Below, piece by piece: positions 1 to 39,804 of a DNA stretch of 64,000 bases. Made by a program: the position numbers and the translations under genes. The notes beneath the pieces are model-generated. The model had not been told where the DNA came from. It did no database searches and saw only the letters and a list, made by a program, of their open reading frames with translations. Source of the stretch: Bacteroidota bacterium (GTDB lineage: Bacteria; Bacteroidota; Bacteroidia; Palsa-965); the NCBI GenBank assembly GCA_006218065.1, contig VBWE01000002.1:85973-149972 (forward strand), written 5' to 3'. The first letter of the stretch is position 1; every line of letters starts with the position of its first letter.

Positions 1-301
1 CGGATACGCTTGGCAATCTCCGAAGCGATATGCGCGAGTTTTTGCTTCCCATCGCGCACCATGCGGCTTGCCTCGGCTGAAAGAGCCGCAGGCTGCAAAA
101 ACTGATGGGTATAGAGGATGAGCTTTTGATACTCTGCTCTGATGCTGCCGACATACGGATCAAGATTCGTGTCGGTTGGAACGGGCCGGTTGTCTTTGGC
201 AAAATGTCGCGCATCTTTCTGCGCTGTTTCTTTCAACTCTCCGTGCTTCTTTGCGATTGTGCGTTCAAGTTCCGGGCTTGTTGTTCTCTTCACGTCTTTC
301 A
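1..301 (-). CDS. hypothetical protein, N-terminal ~100 aa only (gene runs off window start)
   Basis: Minus-strand ORF with ATG at 299-301 (MKDVKRTTSPELERTIAKKHGELKE...) and no in-window stop. Its 5' UTR (AAAAACGAAAGCC-ATG-AA) and the upstream 33-bp motif are near-identical to those of the next gene. Absent from the ORF track because it is open at the window edge. Confidence 0.35.
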
Positions 302-332
302 TGGCTTTCGTTTTTAAGGTTCTTGTGTACAG

Positions 333-365
333 ATATATACTTTGGCGTAACAGGATTTCTGACAC
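333..365 (-). promoter_or_regulatory. conserved 33-bp motif, copy 1 (ATATATAC-N3-GGCGTAACAGG-N5-TGACA on + strand), about 30 nt upstream of the minus-strand ATG
   Basis: One of three near-identical motif copies (333-365, 793-825, 1623-1655), each just upstream of a minus-strand start codon. In gene orientation it reads TGTCA-N5-CCTGTTACGC-N4-GTATATAT, followed by a conserved AAAAAC..GCC-ATG leader. Confidence 0.5.
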
Positions 366-366
366 G

Positions 367-768
367 TCAACGGGTTCGAGTCGGTTCTTTGCTTCTGCTG
401 ACTCGCAGGCTTTTGAGCGATTGTTTTCGTTCCGCTTCCTGTGGAGTGAGCTGCTCCTTTTCGACTTCTTGGTTATGGTGAAGGAGAATTGCCGCGAGCT
501 TTTCGCGTTCCTGATAGATATTCCGCTTCAGTTCATGGAGCTTTGCTGTAGGAGCGAGAAAGGTGTTCCCTGTTACATCAGTAGCTCGATATGAGGACAC
601 TTCCATGTGTGGATCATATTCTTTGTAAATGCGACCACCAACAGCAAAGTGTTTGCCCGGTGTTTTTACAAGAATGGCAATGAAGTGTTGCCCCTTTTTC
701 CAGACAGGATACTCGTGGAAACGCATCTGGATATCGTTGTTCTCGGTATTCTTTTTTTCTTGGTTCAT
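367..768 (-). CDS. small hypothetical protein, paralog 1 of a tandem family (KGQ...EYDP...D-TGN signature)
   Basis: ORF 367..831(-) trimmed to the internal ATG at 768 (MNQEKKNTENN...), because the 5' extension would read through the conserved upstream motif. Shares F-EY...KGQ...I-AI...G...EYDP...D(V/M)TGN with the next two genes. Glu/Lys-rich coiled-coil-like C-terminus. Confidence 0.5.
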   Translation of the reverse strand: MNQEKKNTENNDIQMRFHEYPVWKKGQHFIAILVKTPGKHFAVGGRIYKEYDPHMEVSSYRATDVTGNTFLAPTAKLHELKRNIYQEREKLAAILLHHNQEVEKEQLTPQEAERKQSLKSLRVSRSKEPTRTR

Positions 769-792
769 GGCTTCGGTTTTTGGTACGTGGAT

Positions 793-825
793 ATATATAC
801 CCGAGCGTAACAGGCCCTCTGACAT
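793..825 (-). promoter_or_regulatory. conserved 33-bp motif, copy 2
   Basis: ATATATAC-ccg-aGCGTAACAGG-ccctc-TGACA, about 24 nt upstream of the ATG at 768. The leader CAAAAACCGAAGCCATGAA matches copy 1. Confidence 0.5.
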
Positions 826-845
826 CACCATGAACTTTTATTGTG

Positions 846-1280
846 TTACCGTTCTTGACCCTTGCCTTTTTTCTCCCGCGTATTTCGGATCTCCTGTATA
901 TCGTTGGTTTTTTCGTCAAGATTCTGTTCCGGTTCTTCGGGGCTTGGTTCCTGATTCTCTAAAGCTTGAGTCTGTTCTTGTAATTTTTCAAGCCGCTCAT
1001 CCGCAAGACGGCGAGCGTTTTCTTTCAAATAGTTCTTTTGCTGGTAATCAGTCGGGGTCGGTTGGGTCAGTTCATTACCATCCATGTCTTTGGCGACATG
1101 CGACCACTTTTTGCTTTCGGGATCGTATTCGGTGAAAACTTGTCCGACTGGCACTTCGGTTGTTCCGTCGGGCATGATGAAGATTGCGTCGATACGGCGT
1201 TGGCCTTTCGCATACTTGGTGTATTCGACGAACTTGAGCTGATTATATGGCCCTTTCGGGGTGCTTGTTTCTGGTTGCAT
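846..1280 (-). CDS. small hypothetical protein, paralog 2 of tandem family
   Basis: 144-aa ORF. LKFVEYTKYAKGQRRIDAIFIMPDGTTEVPVGQVFTEYDPESKKWSHVAKDMDGNEL aligns with paralog 1. Acidic/coiled-coil C-terminus. Only 21 bp downstream of paralog 3, so probably co-transcribed. Confidence 0.5.
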   Translation of the reverse strand: MQPETSTPKGPYNQLKFVEYTKYAKGQRRIDAIFIMPDGTTEVPVGQVFTEYDPESKKWSHVAKDMDGNELTQPTPTDYQQKNYLKENARRLADERLEKLQEQTQALENQEPSPEEPEQNLDEKTNDIQEIRNTREKKGKGQER

Positions 1281-1301: not shown

Positions 1302-1598
1302 TTAGTGTGCCGACAGGGTTAATAGTATCTGTGCAGCGTTATTGATAATGACTTCTCGCAGTCCTTTGAGTGTTGTGCTTTCTGCGAGTATGACTGTTCC
1401 GGTCATGTCCTTGAGGAGATACGCAGGATTATTTGTTTCGGAATCGTACACGATATATGTCCGGGCTTGCGTGCCGTGGCCACCCTGTTTCCCTCGGTGA
1501 ATCGTGGTTCTTAAATAATAGTTCTCGTAATCTGTACCGGGCAGAAATGTGACCCATAGGCCTTCTGTTCCTGTATTCTTTTCTTCTGTTTTCATCAC
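1302..1598 (-). CDS. small hypothetical protein, paralog 3 of tandem family
   Basis: 98-aa ORF (MMKTEEKNTG...) with the same core (YIVYDSETNNPAYLLKDMTGTV). Preceded by motif copy 3. Confidence 0.45.
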   Translation of the reverse strand: MMKTEEKNTGTEGLWVTFLPGTDYENYYLRTTIHRGKQGGHGTQARTYIVYDSETNNPAYLLKDMTGTVILAESTTLKGLREVIINNAAQILLTLSAH

Positions 1599-1622
1599 GA
1601 ACCTGTTTTAGTTTGTATACAT

Positions 1623-1655
1623 ACATATACCAAGGCGTAACAGGAGTCATGACAC
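1623..1655 (-). promoter_or_regulatory. conserved 33-bp motif, copy 3
   Basis: ACATATAC-caa-gGCGTAACAGG-agtca-TGACA, about 24 nt upstream of the ATG at 1598. Confidence 0.5.
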
Positions 1656-1671
1656 AGACTCTTGATTATTC

Positions 1672-1708
1672 TTGAGTGCGGAAAAAGCTCAGAAATTGAG
1701 TGCGGAAA
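1672..1708 (+). repeat. direct repeat TTGAGTGCGGAAA x2 (24-bp spacing), possible integrase arm-type sites
   Basis: Exact 13-mer at 1672-1684 and 1696-1708, immediately upstream of the tRNA 3'-half remnant. Confidence 0.35.
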
Positions 1709-1787
1709 TACGGGTAGATACTCCTTAATGCAGGATGATGCAATGCCTGTTTATGCGGGATTACGCAAGATTAGGGACAGAGCAGGG

Positions 1788-1831
1788 CGCTGTTAATCAT
1801 GGGGTCCCTGGTTCGAGCCCAGGAGGGGGAG
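1788..1831 (+). tRNA. partial tRNA: tRNA-Asn(GUU)-like 3' half (anticodon loop CTGTTAA through T-arm and acceptor 3' strand), no 5' half; probable att-site remnant
   Basis: CTGTTAA-tcatg-gggtc-CCTGG-TTCGAGC-CCAGG-AGGGGGA-G has correct tRNA spacing: anticodon loop, 5-nt 3' stem strand, 5-nt variable loop, 17-nt T-arm with canonical TTCGAGC loop, 7-nt acceptor strand and discriminator. No complementary 5' acceptor strand (TCCCCCT) or D-arm exists in the 100 nt upstream. Confidence 0.5.
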
Positions 1832-1839
1832 CTTCACTA

Positions 1840-1878
1840 AATGCCTGAGAGAGAAATCTTTCAGGCATTTTTGTTTTT
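1840..1878 (+). terminator. rho-independent terminator (AATGCCTGA...TCAGGCATT + T-run)
   Basis: 9-bp perfect stem, 12-nt loop, followed by TTTTGTTTTT. Sits 8 nt after the tRNA-like 3' end, like a native tRNA terminator. Confidence 0.6.
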
Positions 1879-2146
1879 GGTCTGCGGAGTCTGTGAGCAG
1901 AAAAATCGGTCAAGGGGCGAATCAAGGAGCGGCATTTTTCAAATTACCGGTCAATCGTGATGTTTTTTTGCGGCTTTTCTGTTGCTCGAACGGGTAAGAT
2001 TTCAGTAGGTGTTTCCTTCTCTTTTCTGGCTCTTTGTTTTCAGCCTTTTCCTCGAGTGCTTCAAGGATGTATTGAAAGGTTCAAACTATTATTTGGAAAA
2101 TAGCCTCAGGGATTATACTTTCATAAAAAATTAATCCTTTTCAATT

Positions 2147-2443
2147 ATGGCAACAAAGAAAAAGGAAGAAACTCCTGTTACAAATTCAAACATTAATACA
2201 AATAACAATACGAACAATATAAATCTCAATGTAAAAGTTGAGCAGCCAAAACCAGATAGAAGATCACCCTCCCCTCCAAAAAAGAAGCCGAATTGGGTTG
2301 TAAAAACGATTGTTATCGGCATTATCGGTCTCGTACTTTCCCTTCTGGGTGTTTATCTCAAAAGAACATTAGACGGAGGACACGGCAGTGTGCCGGGAGT
2401 GCATAGCGAAATAGCCAATACATCAAAAAATGATTTCACTTGA
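2147..2443 (+). CDS. hypothetical Asn/Lys-rich low-complexity protein with one C-terminal TM helix
   Basis: 98-aa ORF in a low-GC islet. N-terminal NTNNNTNNIN low complexity, KKKPNWVVKTIVIGIIGLVLSLLGVYL helix. Confidence 0.35.
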   Translation: MATKKKEETPVTNSNINTNNNTNNINLNVKVEQPKPDRRSPSPPKKKPNWVVKTIVIGIIGLVLSLLGVYLKRTLDGGHGSVPGVHSEIANTSKNDFT

Positions 2444-2961
2444 AAACTCCTCTGCAAATGAAAAACACACTACGCATTTCTACGATTCTGCTTTTCGGAA
2501 TCACTCTACTGCTTATAGATGGATGCAAAAAAGAAGGGCCACAAGGCCCAGCCGGAAATGCCAATGTTGTCTCCCATACCTTTTCTGCCTCCTCCTGGTT
2601 ATGGAGTTCGCCAAATTATTATGTTGATTTCACGGTACCTGAACTGACTTCATCGAATATCAATGAGGCTGCCGTTATGGTGTATTTCAGTACCGTTGCT
2701 GGGAATTGGATTGCAGTGCCCTACACGCAATACAATTCGCCATATGATTACTTTATGAATTTTTTAACTGCCGTTAATACTGTTGAAGTAAGGTGGTTTT
2801 ATGACAGTTCACTAAGCAGTGGAAATGATCCAAACGTATATTATGGAACGACGGTTCAATTCAAGATTGTCATTATTCCTCCTGGAATACGAAAAGCAAA
2901 TCCTGATTTGGATTTGACGAATTATCAAGCGGTAAAACTGCAGTTTGGTTTATTGGATTAA
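2440..2961 (+). CDS. hypothetical lipoprotein (lipobox LLIDGC, short collagen-like GPQGPAG)
   Basis: 173-aa ORF with a 4-nt overlap to the previous ORF. Signal peptide plus Cys lipobox. AT-rich codon usage unlike the rest of the window. Confidence 0.45.
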   Translation: MKTPLQMKNTLRISTILLFGITLLLIDGCKKEGPQGPAGNANVVSHTFSASSWLWSSPNYYVDFTVPELTSSNINEAAVMVYFSTVAGNWIAVPYTQYNSPYDYFMNFLTAVNTVEVRWFYDSSLSSGNDPNVYYGTTVQFKIVIIPPGIRKANPDLDLTNYQAVKLQFGLLD

Positions 2962-2972
2962 ATGTAATAGTC

Positions 2973-3161
2973 TTAATCAAAAATCAACGATTCTCCACAA
3001 AATACATCTCCATCACCCCCTTGTTCTTCGCCTCGATTTTCCCCCGCGGCGCCCTGTAATTCCAGGTGCAGGGAATCAATGACAGCCTGGTTTCCGCTCT
3101 GCGAGAGGCCGGGACACAAAAAAGTCACTACTGCTGCAAGCAGTAAAGCGATTTTTTTCAT
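2973..3161 (-). CDS. small secreted hypothetical protein
   Basis: Internal start MKKIALLLAAVVTFLCPGLSQ (signal peptide) within ORF 2973..3236. Confidence 0.25.
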   Translation of the reverse strand: MKKIALLLAAVVTFLCPGLSQSGNQAVIDSLHLELQGAAGENRGEEQGGDGDVFCGESLIFD

Positions 3162-3363: not shown

Positions 3364-5112
3364 TTACTTCGTCTTGATCAGCTTCCGGATCGTTTTCCCG
3401 GATTTCGTGATCACGGTCACATAATACGTTCCCGCAGCAAGATTGCTTTTCAGCGTAACCGGTACACGCTGCGCGTGCGTCTTTACTTCAATACGCTCGA
3501 GCAGTTGCCCGTTGCTGCTGCTTATGATGATGCAATCGCCCGTTTCGAAATGGTGATTGATCCACTCCACGGTGATCATGCTCTCGGCCGGGTTCGGGTA
3601 AATGAAAATTTCTTCTGCATCCTGTTTCGCCGGGATGCCGGTTACGCCGCTGCCTTCGGTGATGGTGATGAACTGGTCTGCGGAAATGTTCGTGTATGTT
3701 TCCGCCGTTTGCCCCAGCCATTCCACGATCACGCTGTCGATCATTGTCGCATTACCCAGTCCGAAATGCGCGCGCAGGTCGTGTTGTCCGCAATACGAAG
3801 TCTGCGCCGAAATTTCGCGGAGCTGCCAGGTCGGAACGCCGTTGATCACCGCATGTACGCGGATCTTCGTGCCGATCGCTGCGCGGTTGGTGTTCGTTCC
3901 CGCCAGCCTGATCGTGATCCAGTGATTCGAATTGCCGTCGTTGTGGTATAAAAAGTCGTTTTCATCCATGCTGTTGAAACGACAGGTAGCCACGGCAAGG
4001 TCTTCGAAACCGTCGTTGTCGTAATCGCCGAAAGCGCATCCGTACGACCAGGCCGAATCGTTGGCGAGGATGCTCGTGCTGTTTCGCGTAAAACTGCCGT
4101 TGCCGTTGTTCAGGTAAAAAAAGTTTACCAGCCGGGCCGGTGTCGTGAATGCATTGGTCACAAAAAGATCCAGGTCCCCGTCGTTGTCCACATCCGACCA
4201 GTCGGAACTGAACGAATTTCCGCCGCTGTTCGAAACCGTATCCGAAACGATCTTGGTAAAATTGAAATTTCCGTCGTTGCGGAAGAGCGCGTTATTGCCC
4301 TGGTCGTTGGCGAGAAAAACATCGAGGTCGCCGTCGTTATCGTAATCGCCCCAGCTGCCGCTCATGGTTTTTCCGCCGTCGGTCAGCAGCGCGCCGGTAG
4401 TAATGGAAGTGAAATTTCCGCCACCGTCGTTACGATACAGGTTTTCATTCTGCCCGCTTTCGTTCGTCACAAAAAGATCGAGATCGTTGTCGCTGTCGAT
4501 GTCCGTCCAGTTCACGCAACGCGATTCACGCTGATCGGTCACGGGCGAACCGGTGAGAATTTTCGTGAACGTATGATCGCCGTTATTGTGATAGAGGAAA
4601 TTCCGCATCGTTCCGGCGCTGTTGGTGACATACATGTCCACGTACCCGTCGTTATCGTAATCGCCCCAGGAACCGGTTTCGGAATAACCGCCATCCGTTA
4701 CGATATCGCCGGTTTGAAATATCAGGAAACCGACGAAGAGCGTGCCCCGGTAAAGCATATTGTTTACGTTGTACCAGTTTGCCACGAAACAATCAAGCAC
4801 ACCGTCGTTGTCGTAATCGGCAAAAGTGGCGCCGTCGGAAGGTTTTCCGTCGTTGACGATCGTGTCAAGACTATTTTCAGGAATAAATGTCCCGTTACCG
4901 ATATTCAGATATAACATATTGTCCTGTCCGCCCGAAGGACCGTTCGTGATGAAACAATCTACCAGGTTGTCGTTGTTCACATCCACCCAGTTCACCGAAC
5001 GCGAATCACCCGGCGTATTGACCAGCGGCCCGGTCGTGACTTTGGTAAAATTCTGCGCGGAAGAAACAGCGACCGCAAAGCAAACAGCGAAAAGAGTAAA
5101 AGTCGTTTTCAT
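3364..5112 (-). CDS. FG-GAP/VCBS (CRTAC1/ASPIC-like) repeat protein with T9SS C-terminal sorting domain
   Basis: Repeated DxDxDGxxD motifs (GDYDNDG, DVDNDGDLD, TDIDSDNDLD). Signal peptide MKTTFTLFAVCFAVAVSSAQ at the internal start. C-terminus IYPNPAESMITVEW...GTYYVTVITKSGKTIRKLIKTK is typical of a Por_Secre_tail. Confidence 0.7.
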   Translation of the reverse strand: MKTTFTLFAVCFAVAVSSAQNFTKVTTGPLVNTPGDSRSVNWVDVNNDNLVDCFITNGPSGGQDNMLYLNIGNGTFIPENSLDTIVNDGKPSDGATFADYDNDGVLDCFVANWYNVNNMLYRGTLFVGFLIFQTGDIVTDGGYSETGSWGDYDNDGYVDMYVTNSAGTMRNFLYHNNGDHTFTKILTGSPVTDQRESRCVNWTDIDSDNDLDLFVTNESGQNENLYRNDGGGNFTSITTGALLTDGGKTMSGSWGDYDNDGDLDVFLANDQGNNALFRNDGNFNFTKIVSDTVSNSGGNSFSSDWSDVDNDGDLDLFVTNAFTTPARLVNFFYLNNGNGSFTRNSTSILANDSAWSYGCAFGDYDNDGFEDLAVATCRFNSMDENDFLYHNDGNSNHWITIRLAGTNTNRAAIGTKIRVHAVINGVPTWQLREISAQTSYCGQHDLRAHFGLGNATMIDSVIVEWLGQTAETYTNISADQFITITEGSGVTGIPAKQDAEEIFIYPNPAESMITVEWINHHFETGDCIIISSSNGQLLERIEVKTHAQRVPVTLKSNLAAGTYYVTVITKSGKTIRKLIKTK

Positions 5113-35392: not shown

Positions 35393-36820
35393 TCAATCTT
35401 CACGGCTTCCGTCATCCGCCATGCGCACCATTTTCGGTGTGAAGGTCGCGATCACGTCCACCAGCTCCTGCTGTGCAGCCATCACCGTGCGGATGTCTTT
35501 GTACGCCATCGGCGCTTCATCCAGTCCCGCACCGATGAGCGTTACACCGTGCTCTTTCAGCACTGCGCGCATTTCCGCACCGGTGATGTTTTTGATGGCC
35601 TGCGTACGGCTCATCTGGCGGCCTGCGCCGTGTGAAGCGGAATTGATAGCTGAAGCTTCTCCTTTTCCGCGCACCAGGAATCCCGGCGCAGTCATCGATC
35701 CCGGGATGATGCCCATCACGTCTTTCGATGCCGGCGTAGCGCCTTTGCGGTGCACGATCACGTCCTGCCCGTTCCAGGTTTCTTTCCAGGCGAAGTTGTG
35801 GTGGTTTTCCACTTTCGCCAGCACGGTTGCGCCGATCGCTTTCACCAGGCGCTCGTGGATCACTTCGTGGCAGGCCGAAGCATAATCACCGGCGAGGTTC
35901 ATCGCCAGCCAGTACTCCTGGCCTTCTGCGCTGTCTAGGTCCAGCCAGGCGAGGTTCACCGCTTCTTTCGGCAGTTTGCAAAGCGACTTCGCCAGTTTGG
36001 TGTAATACCCGGCAACCGTAGCGCCGAAACCGCGCGAACCGGAATGCGTGAGCAGGGCAAGGTATTTCCCTTTGCGGATATTCAGTTTGGCATCATCGGT
36101 TTCAAATTCGATGATACCCCATTCCGCGAAATGGTTTCCGCCGCCGGAAGTTCCCAGCTGCGAAGCGGCTTTCTCAAAAAGTCCTTTGATGAACGGCGTC
36201 GCGTTAAACTCATCGCGTGCGAGGATCGCATGATCGGCTTTGTGTTTCCCGTTCCATCCTGCACCCGCACCGAATTTGGTGAAAGCGATCAGTTCGCGCT
36301 TATACATGTTTTCATTTTGCAGGAAGTGATTTTCCGGGATATCGAAAACCGACAAAGCCATACGGCAGCCGATATCCACACCCACGCCGTACGGAATCAC
36401 CGTGTTGTTCGTGGCCAGCACACCGCCGATCGGCAGTCCGTATCCCTGGTGCGCGTCCGGCATTAAAGCGCCGGCCACGGTAACCGGGAGTTTCATCGCC
36501 ACGTCCATCTGCGCGATTGCACCCGGTTCGATATTTCCTGCGCCGAAAACCGTATATGCCCCGGCAGTTTCGTTCAATGCAATTTCTGCGGTATCATCTT
36601 CTTCCGGCTTTTCAACCAGGTCGCTTGCAACAGCGGATAAAACGGTATCGTCCAGGAAATTCTCCGGCGACTGTACCAGTTTCACGAGGATAGCGAGCAC
36701 TTCTTCGCGCGACAGGTTGCGGTAGTGCTGATCGATCGTACGGATCGCCGTTCCGATCGCTTTTCCCTCCGGGAAGCCGATGTTTTTCAGGTCTTCTCCT
36801 TTAATGTTCAGCTTGTTCAT
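35393..36820 (-). CDS. rtcB: RtcB-family RNA 3'-phosphate ligase
   Basis: 475 aa with conserved RtcB blocks (HGAGR at SASHGAGRQMSR, metal-binding His/Asp/Cys positions, C-terminal His). Confidence 0.9.
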   Translation of the reverse strand: MNKLNIKGEDLKNIGFPEGKAIGTAIRTIDQHYRNLSREEVLAILVKLVQSPENFLDDTVLSAVASDLVEKPEEDDTAEIALNETAGAYTVFGAGNIEPGAIAQMDVAMKLPVTVAGALMPDAHQGYGLPIGGVLATNNTVIPYGVGVDIGCRMALSVFDIPENHFLQNENMYKRELIAFTKFGAGAGWNGKHKADHAILARDEFNATPFIKGLFEKAASQLGTSGGGNHFAEWGIIEFETDDAKLNIRKGKYLALLTHSGSRGFGATVAGYYTKLAKSLCKLPKEAVNLAWLDLDSAEGQEYWLAMNLAGDYASACHEVIHERLVKAIGATVLAKVENHHNFAWKETWNGQDVIVHRKGATPASKDVMGIIPGSMTAPGFLVRGKGEASAINSASHGAGRQMSRTQAIKNITGAEMRAVLKEHGVTLIGAGLDEAPMAYKDIRTVMAAQQELVDVIATFTPKMVRMADDGSRED

Positions 36821-37039: not shown

Positions 37040-38143
37040 TTATTTTTGTTCCGGTACGAAGAGCTGCCTGAGCTGATCGGAAAGCTGGCTGTTTCCGGAT
37101 ACGGAGATGGTGTTGATTTTCTCCGCGATCTTTTCCACGAATTCCATTTCCTTCAACCTGAACAGCATCTGGTTTTCTTCCATCAGCTTTGCGGTGTTCA
37201 GCAGGCTGCGCGTCGAAGCGGTTTCTTCACGTCTCATGATGGTGTTGGCCTGCGCTTTCTTTTCGGCCACCAGCACGCGGTTCATGATTTCTTTCACTTC
37301 ACCGGGAAGAATAATATCCCGGATACCGCAGTTCAGGATTACCGTACCAAGCGCCTCTGCCTCGGCTGTGATCGTGCTGCGGACAGCATCGGCCACACCG
37401 TCTTTCCGGTCGAGCAGTTCATCGAGCGTAAGTTTGCCGACGAATTCCCTCAGCTTCAGCTGGAGCAGGACGTAAAGCTGCTTTTCGAAATCTTTGTTTT
37501 CGGTGAGCGCTTTTTCCACGTCCTTCACCCGGTACTGGGCGAACATACTCAGTCGCAGGCTGGCTTTGTCGCGGGTCAGCAATTCCTGGCCGGCGATTTC
37601 AAGCTGCACCTGCCGCATATCCGCTTTCAGCACGGCAACCATCGTGTCGTTCTTCCAGAAAAAATAGTTGCCCGGTTCGAGCGTTTGTTCGAGCTTACCG
37701 TTTACCAGGAGCAGACCTTTTTCCCAGGATTCGACCGTGTACACACGGATGAACTGGACCAGTTCCCTGCGCTGGAGCAGGGCAGGACCGAACTCCGCAG
37801 GAATACGGATTTCGTTCGTATCGGCAGTTACGAAATTTCTGTTTACTACGCCTTTCCAGAAAACGTATTTGCCTACCGTGAGAATCGATTTCACGATACC
37901 GTCTTCAAAACGGACGGCGATCTCGTTGTCTTTCACGATCACGACTTCCAGGGCTTCGGCCAGCCCGGCGTTTTTCAGCAAAAGGTTCAGGTCATGCCGC
38001 GACGTAAAGGGCTGCGTCATGTCATATACTTCCACGCGGTCGAACGGGGAGAGGAAGTACAAACCTTCGCGGAGTACTTTTTTCAGCGCGCCGTTCCGGA
38101 ATACCAGTCCGGCTTTGTACGCATTGATTCTTACGATAGTCAT
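37040..38143 (-). CDS. cytoplasmic SPFH/band-7 (slipin/flotillin-like) domain protein with repeated N-terminal beta-motifs
   Basis: C-terminal half has SPFH features (SLRLSMFAQYRV...TAEAEALGTVILNCGIRDIILPGEV...AEKKAQANTIMRRE). No N-terminal TM. The N-terminal 150 aa carries three G(K/N)Y(V/F)FWK-like repeats. Confidence 0.6.
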   Translation of the reverse strand: MTIVRINAYKAGLVFRNGALKKVLREGLYFLSPFDRVEVYDMTQPFTSRHDLNLLLKNAGLAEALEVVIVKDNEIAVRFEDGIVKSILTVGKYVFWKGVVNRNFVTADTNEIRIPAEFGPALLQRRELVQFIRVYTVESWEKGLLLVNGKLEQTLEPGNYFFWKNDTMVAVLKADMRQVQLEIAGQELLTRDKASLRLSMFAQYRVKDVEKALTENKDFEKQLYVLLQLKLREFVGKLTLDELLDRKDGVADAVRSTITAEAEALGTVILNCGIRDIILPGEVKEIMNRVLVAEKKAQANTIMRREETASTRSLLNTAKLMEENQMLFRLKEMEFVEKIAEKINTISVSGNSQLSDQLRQLFVPEQK

Positions 38144-38419
38144 ATTACTCGGTATTAAAAATTACAGTTCAAAAATCCCGGGTGCAGTTCGGAGTAGCCC
38201 ATCCATTGCAGGGGGGAATCGGCTTGAGCGGAGATTTGCCGTTTTGTTTCGATGAATCGGTTTTATCACTCATCCAAAGAAAACAACGCATGCTTCGCGG
38301 TATCTGCTTTTTCACTGACCCTGGTCCGGATTGTCCTGCCCGCCGGAGCGGACACGACCGGGTTACTCCTCCCCGGCAACCGGTTCTGCCATTTTTATAG
38401 AAGAGGCAGGCTTCTTACC

Positions 38420-38490
38420 CTGGATTAACAGTCCAGTGCTCTAACCAACTGAGCTATCCGAAAGATGGTCGGAACGGGATTCGAACCCGT
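38420..38490 (-). ncRNA. circularly permuted tRNA-Asn-like element (T-arm, acceptor-like hairpin, D-arm, GUU anticodon arm); candidate Y-RNA/YrlA-like tRNA mimic upstream of the SPFH-rtcB genes
   Basis: Minus strand reads ACGGG-TTCGAAT-CCCGT (canonical T-arm), TCCGA-CCATCTT-TCGGA (5-bp acceptor-like stem closed by a loop beginning CCA), TA, GCTC-AGTTGGTTA-GAGC (canonical D-arm), A, CTGGA-CTGTTAA-TCCAG (anticodon arm, GUU). All loops are canonical only on the minus strand. The 5'-to-3' order is T-arm before D-arm, which is a circular permutation of a tRNA. No 7-bp acceptor pairing is possible, so it is not a tRNA gene. Confidence 0.55.
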
Positions 38491-38623
38491 GACACTTGGT
38501 GCAGATACAGGTTATACAGACAGCATATTGCCATCGAAAACATCGGGCAACACTGCGGGGCCGTCAAAGACCCGCGCCGGGTTCATGCATAGCTGTGATC
38601 AGCGGTGCAAAGGTTTCCGGAAA

Positions 38624-38787: not shown

Positions 38788-39804
38788 ATGTCCATCAATA
38801 AACTCGCCCTGATCCGTTATAAAACGATCGACAACTGCCTGCAGAACCGTTTCCGGAAATGGACGCTGGAAGACCTGATCGAAGCCTGTTCGGAAGCGGT
38901 GTACGAATACGAAGGCATTACATCCGGCGTGAGCCGGCGGACCGTGCAGCTCGATATCCAGAACATGCGCAGCGAAAAACTGGGTTATAATGCACCGATC
39001 ATCGTAACGGATAAAAAATATTACAGCTACGAAGAAAAGAACTACAGCATCACGAATACGCCGCTCACGCAGCAGGATCTCGGAACGCTGAATGAGGTGC
39101 TCGGTGTGCTGAAGCAGTTCAAGGGTTTCGGTTATTTCCAGGAACTGACGGGCATGGTTACACGGCTGGAAGATAAACTGTACAAGCAGCAGCACAAAGG
39201 CCGTTCGTACATCGACTTCGAGAAAAACGAATTACTGAAAGGACTCAGCTACATCGATCCGCTGCACAAAGCGATTCTCGCGAAAAAAACGATCGAGTTG
39301 GTTTATAAATCCTTCAAAGCGAAAGACGCCAGCACGATCGTTTTTTATCCATACCTGCTTAAAGAATACCGCAACCGCTGGTTCATACTGGGCTCCAACG
39401 TGAAAGGCCGCCGCGCGCTGATCCTCGCACTCGACCGTATCGAACAGATGCGCGAACTGGAATCGGTGAAGTATGTTAAATGCGCGTTTGATGTAAGCAC
39501 GTACTTTGATGATACGATCGGGGTTTCCAAAGTCCCCAACCAGAAAGCGCAGCTCATCGTGATGCAGATCAACAACGAACATGCGCCGTATGTGATCACC
39601 AAGCCGATGCACCACAGCCAGCAGGTTTTAAAACAGGACGCCGCAGGCATGATCTTCTCCATCGAAGTGATCTGGAATTTCGAACTGGAGCGCGAAATTC
39701 TCGGTATGGGCGAAAACCTGAAAGTCCTCAGTCCGCGCAGGCTCGCCGGGAAAATCCAGTCGAGGATGAAACGGGCTGCAGAGCATTACCGGGATAAAAG
39801 ATAA
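38788..39804 (+). CDS. WYL-domain transcriptional regulator (N-terminal HTH, central WYL, C-terminal WCX-like extension)
   Basis: HTH region at the N-terminus. WYL signature IVFYPYLLKEYRNRWFILG. About 100-aa C-terminal extension. 338 aa. Confidence 0.75.
   Translation: MSINKLALIRYKTIDNCLQNRFRKWTLEDLIEACSEAVYEYEGITSGVSRRTVQLDIQNMRSEKLGYNAPIIVTDKKYYSYEEKNYSITNTPLTQQDLGTLNEVLGVLKQFKGFGYFQELTGMVTRLEDKLYKQQHKGRSYIDFEKNELLKGLSYIDPLHKAILAKKTIELVYKSFKAKDASTIVFYPYLLKEYRNRWFILGSNVKGRRALILALDRIEQMRELESVKYVKCAFDVSTYFDDTIGVSKVPNQKAQLIVMQINNEHAPYVITKPMHHSQQVLKQDAAGMIFSIEVIWNFELEREILGMGENLKVLSPRRLAGKIQSRMKRAAEHYRDKR

Follow-up and report, generated by a model that had tools for sequence, protein, structure and literature searches.

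A displaced 3′ half of tRNA-Asn(GTT) as the very probable attR end of a 34.8-kb integrative mobilizable element in an uncultured Bacteroidota genome

The window analyzed here is a 64,000-nucleotide stretch of a contig from an uncultured Bacteroidota genome. Positions are counted from its first base, and negative positions lie to the left of it. At its left edge the window carries a run of small genes on the minus strand, followed by a pair of exact repeats, part of a tRNA and a terminator, all on the plus strand:

1..302, minus strand: 5′ part of the p343 gene (343 aa), which extends past the window start in the L001/L114 gene calls
367..831, minus strand: w154, paralogous small protein, with a probable true start at 771
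846..1280, minus strand: w144, paralogous small protein
1302..1598, minus strand: w98, member of the same paralogous small-protein family and first gene inside the right end of the proposed element
1672..1684, plus strand: TTGAGTGCGGAAA, predicted arm-type repeat 1 of the P arm, exact repeat
1696..1708, plus strand: TTGAGTGCGGAAA, predicted arm-type repeat 2 of the P arm, exact repeat
1774..1784, plus strand: GGGACAGAGCA, D-arm-like remnant in the element-side flank, matching tRNA sequence GGTTAGAGCA at 8 of 10 positions
1790..1832, plus strand: predicted attR core, a displaced tRNA-Asn(GTT) 3′ end of 43 nt that begins with the anticodon loop and includes the base after the discriminator
1839..1880, plus strand: intrinsic terminator (terminator scan), a 14-pair hairpin at 1839-1870 followed by a T-run
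1883..1903, plus strand: TGCGGAGTCTGTGAGCAGAAA, degenerate arm-like sequence outside the element, matching the attL P′ arm sequence TGCGGAATCTGAGTGCGGAAA at 17 of 21 positions

The sequence at 1790-1832 (CTGTTAATCATGGGGTCCCTGGTTCGAGCCCAGGAGGGGGAGC) is identical at all 43 positions to bases 33-75 of the 75-nt tRNA-Asn(GTT) genes found by ARAGORN and BLAST at about 100 Bacteroidota loci. It comprises the anticodon loop (CTGTTAA) from its first base, the variable loop, the T-arm, the 3′ strand of the acceptor stem and the discriminator, and BLAST matches to tRNA-Asn genes invariably started at 1790, the first base of the anticodon loop. The initial annotation had placed a tRNA 3′ half at 1788-1831; the fragment is real, but its coordinates are corrected to 1790-1832. 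The same annotation had noted the lack of a 5′ half, and this holds: ARAGORN called zero tRNA genes in the whole window, and Rfam gave no tRNA match in 1500-2100 even at E ≤ 10. The annotation had named a complete tRNA spanning 1750-1831 as the finding that would overturn its reading, and the ARAGORN run that it proposed called none there. A complete or cryptic tRNA at 1750-1832 was likewise ruled out as a candidate, both programs being empty. With the 5′ half of the cloverleaf missing in both searches, the sequence does not qualify as a functional tRNA gene. Alignment with intact tRNAs and comparison of the junctions left the D-arm-like GGGACAGAGCA as the sole tRNA-like trace upstream of 1790, and it is followed by GGGCG where the 5′ strand of the anticodon stem would be expected. 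The half-tRNA should not be annotated as a tRNA gene or pseudogene.

The distribution of this sequence was assessed by scanning one genome per species with a 34-nt part of the core, which yielded 111 stretches, nearly all from Bacteroidota. For about 100 of these, ARAGORN placed a 75-nt tRNA-Asn(GTT) on the matching sequence, while 10 of the 111 carried the core sequence without a tRNA call. In seven of these ten, identity to the tRNA starts at the boundary base seen in the window or one base before it, and the upstream flanks are unrelated. Two loci (L002 and L073) have an upstream gene of about 400 aa, on the element side and at a distance of 100-200 bp; it has an integrase-like N-terminus and is a putative integrase, and the ORFs at both loci and other such ORFs are mutually similar. 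The last 43 bp of tRNA-Asn therefore serve repeatedly as an attachment site in Bacteroidota.

A strong, native-looking terminator had been reported 8 nt after the fragment. The hairpin (14 pairs, 5 of them G-C) and the T-run that follows it (TTGTTTTT) are present as described, and intact tRNA-Asn genes of other genomes have a hairpin and T-run at the equivalent place, one such locus (L038) being 87% identical over 1790-1872. However, the gap is 6-7 nt rather than 8, and this terminator may not be the chromosome's original one. An older element is hinted at by the combination of the arm-like sequence at 1883-1903, whose local alignment score was reached by 7 of 1000 shuffles, and low G+C across 1.9-3.1 kb, and 1883-1903 is possibly a relic of an earlier related element. 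Genes in the right flank showed no informative synteny with tRNA-Asn loci of other genomes, and no integrase remnant was found between w98 and the fragment or just to the right of the fragment.

One may ask whether the 43-nt module and its terminator form a functional tRNA half or tRNA-like RNA, transcribed as a regulatory or decoy molecule. The good terminator after the fragment would suit such a role, as would the presence of a genuine tRNA mimic elsewhere in the window. Against this, the fragment has no promoter-like site before it and matches no Rfam family. Its perfect identity with the resident tRNA and its boundary at the start of the anticodon loop are what recombination predicts, and the same boundary is found in independent elements with unrelated flanks. 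We consider a functional RNA highly improbable.

The tRNA mimic just mentioned lies at 38416-38511 on the minus strand, where the initial annotation had seen a permuted tRNA that shares the CTGTTAATC nonamer with the fragment. A 501-nt search with Rfam matched YrlA (Y RNA-like) at 39.8 bits against a gathering score of 69 (E=2e-7), the match covering the T-arm, a capped acceptor-like hairpin and the D-arm. Band-7 and RtcB genes lie downstream of the element, with a WYL regulator opposite it. Mimicry of tRNAs has been described for bacterial Y RNAs (PMC4201824), and the 38.4-kb element is predicted to be a YrlA-like Y RNA beside RtcB instead of a permuted tRNA. The nonamer does occur there, as an Asn-type anticodon loop on the minus strand, but it has no bearing on the att site, the element being an unrelated YrlA-like RNA. 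A link between the two was rejected, as the acceptor, T-arm and anticodon stem differ and the strand is opposite; the 38.4-kb element is not an att site.

We then turned to the DNA left of the window. The starting point was a Logan contig (L001), identified through the window's small proteins, whose sequence is reverse-complementary to the window and runs on past its start; a VirD4/TraG-type coupling protein and a MobA/VirD2-type relaxase are encoded on it. The walk leftward used ENA contig ERZ27284376:k119_135821 (L114, L117, L135), reached through identical proteins returned by searches. This contig is a separate assembly of the same population, with 0 mismatches in the 953 bp of window overlap that were checked, and identical proteins in matching order are found on a 306,696-bp NCBI MAG contig, whose proteins include TND10140.1 and TND10144.1. 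The first 30.7 kb to the left contained no tRNA, no core 22-mer at ≤3 mismatches and no short-word BLAST match. At -33079..-33005 on the plus strand (L135 14161-14235, minus strand), ARAGORN called an intact 75-nt tRNA-Asn(GTT). It is on the same strand as the fragment, and its last 43 bp (-33047..-33005) are identical to 1790-1832. The identity between the two ends stops exactly at both edges, giving a repeat period, and thereby an element length, of 34,837 bp and a right border at 1789/1790. The hairpin and T-run that follow the attL tRNA-Asn differ from those at attR and are element-borne. No further tRNA-Asn fragment was found between the two cores.

The arrangement has traits by which Islander recognizes islands: the fragment is identical to part of an intact tRNA on the same replicon and in direct orientation (both plus), the target gene is regenerated intact by island sequence, and a tyrosine integrase gene is located inside the island near one end. 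The geometry of a displaced tRNA-Asn 3′ end, proposed initially from the right end only, is thus matched by the same 43-mer in an intact gene. That proposal had placed the intact tRNA and the integrase of a leftward-extending element beyond the window start and would have been undermined had neither appeared within about 100 kb; both were located within 35 kb, the integrase gene (485 aa) being 112 bp from the tRNA. From left to right, the contents of the element are as follows:

-32892..-31435, minus strand: Int485, tyrosine integrase of 485 aa (PF00589, PF13102)
Left, recombination end: tRNA-Asn, Int485, an ECF-sigma-like protein and a Dam methylase
Next rightward, accessory genes: small ORFs, a 289-aa XerC/D-like recombinase and a NYN nuclease
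Next rightward, chromosomal-looking block: an S8 peptidase with a T9SS sorting domain and a thioredoxin-like protein
Next rightward, regulators and defence: two HTH proteins, RadC, CapP/CapH-like regulators, DnaJ and a Ser/Thr kinase
Next rightward, type II CBASS: a SAVED-HNH effector, a CD-NTase and an E2 protein
Next rightward, past CBASS: a caspase-like protein and several genes of unknown function
Right end, backbone: relaxase, p182, coupling protein, p231, p343, w154, w144 and w98, followed by the arm repeats and the fragment

The Int485 gene is transcribed toward the attL tRNA. Its product matched PF00589 (Phage_integrase) at 33.3 bits (cut-off 27.1) as well as PF13102 (Phage_int_SAM_5). 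In an alignment of four sequences, Int485 and three homologues, R301, K330, R411, H433 and Y443 were invariant, and so were four N-terminal cysteines (C23, C26, C34 and C44). Box I aligns weakly with box I of lambda Int. Residues 1-130 matched no Pfam or NCBIfam model and no known arm-binding family, a search of viral contigs gave no relatives, and we found no published description of the Int485 lineage and its tRNA-Asn target in uncultured Bacteroidota. Other candidates for the responsible integrase were considered and rejected. The 289-aa XerC/D-like recombinase (-27621..-26752) has no adjoining tRNA and no arm motif nearby. As hidden integrases, p343, p231, p492 and the small proteins were dismissed in the absence of family matches, and tblastn found no similarity between them and the integrases of other tRNA-Asn elements.

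The two exact repeats that had been noted 80-120 bp upstream of the fragment correspond to the TTGAGTGCGGAAA 13-mers, which have a spacing of 24 and end 106 and 82 bp before the core. There is no third exact copy in the window, and the four occurrences at ≤2 mismatches are not above chance (20 of 100 shuffles). The window alone is insufficient to prove a function for these repeats; that proof comes from the copies at the far end of the element. There, the P′ arm contains three same-strand (GA)GTGCGGAA-type copies at -32923..-32895, in the stretch (GGTGCGGAATCTGAGTGCGGAAATGCGGAAAA) between the Int485 stop codon and the element-borne tRNA terminator. In the 103.7-kb composite sequence, GAGTGCGGAAA occurs three times, on one strand and always within about 120 bp of the two cores, and GTGCGGAA occurs nine times, four of them at the element ends.

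A second MAG, DASTSF01, encodes a 44%-identical integrase beside an intact tRNA-Asn (L028) and has the displaced fragment on another contig (L032). Both of its ends carry (T)CAGCGCGGAA repeats at positions equivalent to those of the window element, with three AGCGCGGA copies at attL (L028) and two exact CAGCGCGGAA copies and one partial copy at attR (L032). A repeated non-core motif is therefore present in both arms and co-varies with the integrase, as is characteristic of heterobivalent integrases. Because the motif changes together with the integrase between the window element and DASTSF01, we read the (GA)GTGCGGAA repeats as predicted arm-type sites, two in the P arm and three in the P′ arm. 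An arm-type role for the 13-mers had already been suggested from the right end, and the recurrence of three copies of the motif beside the integrase at attL bears it out.

Could the junction instead result from an assembly error, in which contigs of two Bacteroidota genomes were joined at the conserved tRNA-Asn 3′ sequence? The 43-mer is identical in many Bacteroidota, and Logan k=31 contigs do end inside it, at window positions 1819 and 1803. However, a join at a common tRNA would yield a whole tRNA and not a precise 3′ part. An independent assembly spans the junction, and its name (k119_135821) suggests k=119, which is longer than the repeat. The arm motif on the element side also matches the attL motif 35 kb away. 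In light of these observations, we regard a chimera as extremely improbable. No empty site or excised circle was found; contigs with the flank gene at 2147-2443 are short and end inside the repeat.

The right-hand genes indicate how the element may be transferred. The relaxase is of the MobA/VirD2 type (PF03432, 60.8 bits) with a weak NCBIfam match to TraI/MobA(P), and the coupling protein is of the VirD4/TraG type (PF02534, 192.9 bits; NF045973, 233 bits). Of the roughly 40 genes from attL to attR, several of them unannotated, none matched a T4SS/Tra family. Because the element has its own relaxase and no mating-pore genes were found, it is classified, from gene content, as an integrative mobilizable element (IME). 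G+C is 37-50% overall in the interior, with the defence region at 37-43% and the backbone at about 50%, compared with about 52% in the chromosome to the right; the chromosomal-looking block reaches 53%. The second recombinase and this block indicate that the island may be composite, or that it may have captured host DNA.

The gene p343 heads a conserved block, p343-p231-coupling protein-p182-relaxase. Homologues of p343 that are 35-39% identical occur with the gene order kept in L121, L123, L129 and L131-L133, and coupling proteins about 60% identical were found in 13 metagenomic loci that keep the order of the block. The proteins w98, w144 and w154 are paralogues of one another and of p222 of L123, and w98 matched no Pfam or NCBIfam model. 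A w154-like gene is found upstream of the mobilization block, beside the p343 homologue, in both L123 and L133. The initial annotation had taken the small genes of 1-1660 for the cargo edge of the element. Their family is instead shared by related metagenomic elements as backbone, and the genes belong to the conserved island backbone, being neither cargo nor chromosome. L123 has a 33%-identical integrase immediately ahead of its w154-like gene, with the same mobilization block following. If attL were joined to attR, Int485 would come to lie directly upstream of w98, and this links the two island ends, since closure of the circle gives the integrase-backbone order of L123. Other relatives of the backbone are located beside nuo genes (L121) or beside rve/IstB genes (L124), and no tRNA-Asn fragment adjoins the related mobilization backbones in metagenomes.

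The second recombinase, the chromosomal-looking genes and the strongly varying G+C of the interval are also what one would expect if the fragment were an orphan, that is, the scar of a decayed old element, with the DNA to its left a later patchwork and the distant tRNA and integrase belonging to a different, later element. No integrase adjoins the fragment, in contrast to L002 and L073, which would fit as well. Yet the two cores are identical at 43 of 43 positions, one rare arm motif flanks both of them and is absent elsewhere, and there is no intervening tRNA-Asn fragment of the kind that tandem accretion would leave. The integrase-backbone synteny of L123 further joins both ends. An orphan remnant is accordingly judged very unlikely. 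We conclude with high confidence that a 34.8-kb integrative mobilizable element has inserted in a tRNA-Asn(GTT) gene here and that 1790-1832 is its attR core.

Binding, excision and transfer are inferred, and the following history reads the observed sequences, positions, repeats and gene content through the standard model of tRNA-targeting tyrosine integrases. The attP of the circular element would have held a copy of the last 43 bp of tRNA-Asn. Int485 would have carried out strand exchange inside the 43-bp identity block, which opens with the first anticodon-loop base (Islander class A), joining the 5′ part of the chromosomal tRNA to the element's 3′ copy and element-borne terminator and so producing the intact gene at attL. 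The original 3′ 43 nt, with the terminator that follows, would have been displaced 34.8 kb downstream to become attR. By analogy with lambda-type intasomes, which have 2+3 arm sites, the conserved N-terminal domain with the four cysteines may be the part of Int485 that binds the arm sites. Integration would be reversible, with excision predicted to give an attB of ...GGTTAGAGCACATGA-[43-bp core]-TTCACTAAATGCCTGAGAG and, in the excised circle, an attP of ...GGGACAGAGCAGGGCG-[43-bp core]-AGATATAAAGGCTTGGAAG. For transfer, the element would supply a MOBP-type relaxase and a VirD4-type coupling protein and borrow the mating pore of a conjugative element resident in the same cell. Because the cores are identical, the integrase ORF and its catalytic residues are intact and the arms are intact, the element is probably still able to excise.

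These results fix the exact right border and the size of a mobile island in an uncultured Bacteroidota genome, explain the half-tRNA and terminator at 1.8 kb as an island end, and place the small-gene family of 1-1660 in the island backbone and not in the chromosome. They also show that a type II CBASS defence system rides on a probably still-mobile element, and the paired arm-site evidence from two MAGs provides a testable DNA-binding motif for a poorly characterized integrase family. The element is a clean, fully delimited example of the textbook tRNA-island arrangement and leaves the current view of such islands unchanged; what it adds is of some local value: an integrase family paired with an arm motif, a Bacteroidota IME that encodes a coupling protein, and a CBASS carried as cargo. 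More tentatively, and with somewhat less than even confidence, we suggest that it represents an undescribed lineage of Bacteroidota mobilizable islands with three joint traits: a tRNA-Asn-specific integrase family whose conserved four-cysteine N-terminus reads GYGCGGAA arm sites, a mobilization block with its own coupling protein that is swapped between recombination modules (a tyrosine integrase in L123, rve/IstB in L124), and repeated use of one tRNA-Asn site, which would have left the relic at 1883-1903.

The definition of tRNA-gene genomic islands reportedly goes back to Reiter (1989) and Williams (2002). In the Islander scheme, a tyrosine integrase splits a tRNA gene that the island itself restores, so that the regenerated gene and the displaced fragment mark the two ends, and an anticodon-centred class of att sites is included (PMC4383910). 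The window element resembles Islander-type islands of class A in its intact tRNA, 43-bp direct repeat, integrase and fragment starting from the anticodon loop. There is no difference in principle; its target and its integrase lineage, which has weak Pfam scores, were not found described. A second comparison is offered by the attP of lambda, which has arm sites P1, P2 and P′1-3 and is bound by a heterobivalent Int. Both systems have 2+3 arm repeats distinct from the core and about 80-120 bp from it, in both the integrase gene borders on the P′ arm and reads toward it, and box I can be aligned. Unlike in lambda, the core of the window element is inside a tRNA gene, no excisionase was identified among its genes, and the N-terminus of Int485, with its four conserved cysteines, has no detectable similarity to the lambda arm-binding domain.

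Asn tRNA genes are also an insertion hot spot for the Yersinia high-pathogenicity island and other enterobacterial islands, which have P4-type integrases and a short site (about 17 bp) at the extreme 3′ end of the gene. The window element has tRNA-Asn as its target in common with these islands, whereas its identity block is 43 bp long and starts from the anticodon loop, and its integrase is unrelated. Closer in host are the IMEs NBU1, which is about 10 kb in size and targets tRNA-Leu, and NBU2, which targets tRNA-Ser. Like the window element, they have a Bacteroidota host and a tyrosine integrase acting at the 3′ part of a tRNA gene, and they encode their own MOBP-family relaxase, lack mating-pore genes and need a helper conjugative element (PMC5704250). 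Known Bacteroidetes IMEs have a relaxase without a coupling protein (PMC5704250). The window element, in contrast, encodes a VirD4-type coupling protein and to that extent departs from the canonical definition of NBU1-like IMEs, and it is about three times larger than NBU1 and carries defence cargo.

Outside the element, just past the hairpin and T-run (1839-1880) that the initial annotation described as a native-looking terminator, the sequence TGCGGAGTCTGTGAGCAGAAA at 1883-1903 agrees with the attL arm TGCGGAATCTGAGTGCGGAAA at 17 of 21 positions, a score reached by 7 of 1000 shuffles. The G+C content is 39-41% over the 1.2 kb that follow the terminator (1900-3100), where two small genes with no assigned function are found, and about 52% farther on. 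The arm-like stretch and the low-G+C region may be left over from an element that had inserted at this tRNA earlier, in which case the terminator behind the tRNA-Asn fragment may not be native.

At the left end, the first 14 nt of tRNA-Asn and the upstream flank (AACCAGAAATATTCCTCCTTAGCTCA) recur roughly 75 bp 5′ of the intact gene (locus L135), and a G+C-rich hairpin, TCCGCC...GGCGGA, follows this extra copy. Either this region was partly duplicated or the copy is a 5′ remnant of older date. Altered tRNA-Asn-like copies were also detected in two other genomes (loci L032 and L097).

L135 14311-14340 (about window -33184 to -33155): second copy of the tRNA-Asn 5′ end
L032 2380-2451: tRNA-Asn-like copy
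L097 about 4050-4123: tRNA-Asn-like copy

The L032 and L097 copies retain the D-arm (GGTTAGAGC) and the whole sequence from TTAATCATGG on, but a G+C-rich palindrome, TCCGCCGCGGCGGA or TCCCGACGTACGTCGGGA, takes the place of the anticodon stem's 5′ strand. A D-arm-like GGGACAGAGCA is likewise retained in the element-side flank of the window.

Among the right-end backbone genes, the minus strand carries a conserved motif some 45 nt long, GTGTCA-N6-CCTGTTACGC-N5-GTATATAT.

330-370, minus strand: motif copy
790-830, minus strand: motif copy
1615-1660, minus strand: motif copy

Copies precede the p343, w154 and w98 start codons by about 30 nt, and none lies at this place before w144. The motif is probably a common promoter or operator for the backbone genes; the element bearing it also encodes an ECF-sigma-like protein.

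Within the island, an NYN-domain nuclease gene adjoins a gene for a 289-aa XerC/D-like recombinase.

About -27621 to -25978 (L135 7134-8777): NYN nuclease and XerC/D-like recombinase pair

In the related metagenomic locus L123, an NYN gene likewise adjoins the integrase. In one relative, L124 (739-3863), the same coupling protein-relaxase block is located directly downstream of ParB-like, rve transposase and IstB ATPase genes rather than of a tyrosine integrase, and an ArdC anti-restriction gene comes next.

The permuted tRNA-like element near 38.4 kb is situated upstream of Band-7/SPFH and RtcB genes, with a WYL/WCX regulator opposite; the neighbors scanned included no Ro60/TROVE gene.

38416-38511, minus strand: tRNA-like element
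35393-36820, minus strand: surrounding gene
37040-38143, minus strand: surrounding gene
38788-39804, plus strand: surrounding gene

Its parts run from T-arm through a capped acceptor-like hairpin and D-arm to an Asn-type anticodon arm. The Rfam family YrlA (RF02553, Y RNA-like) scores 39.8 bits against it, short of the gathering threshold of 69, with an E-value of 2e-7 when 501 nt were searched.
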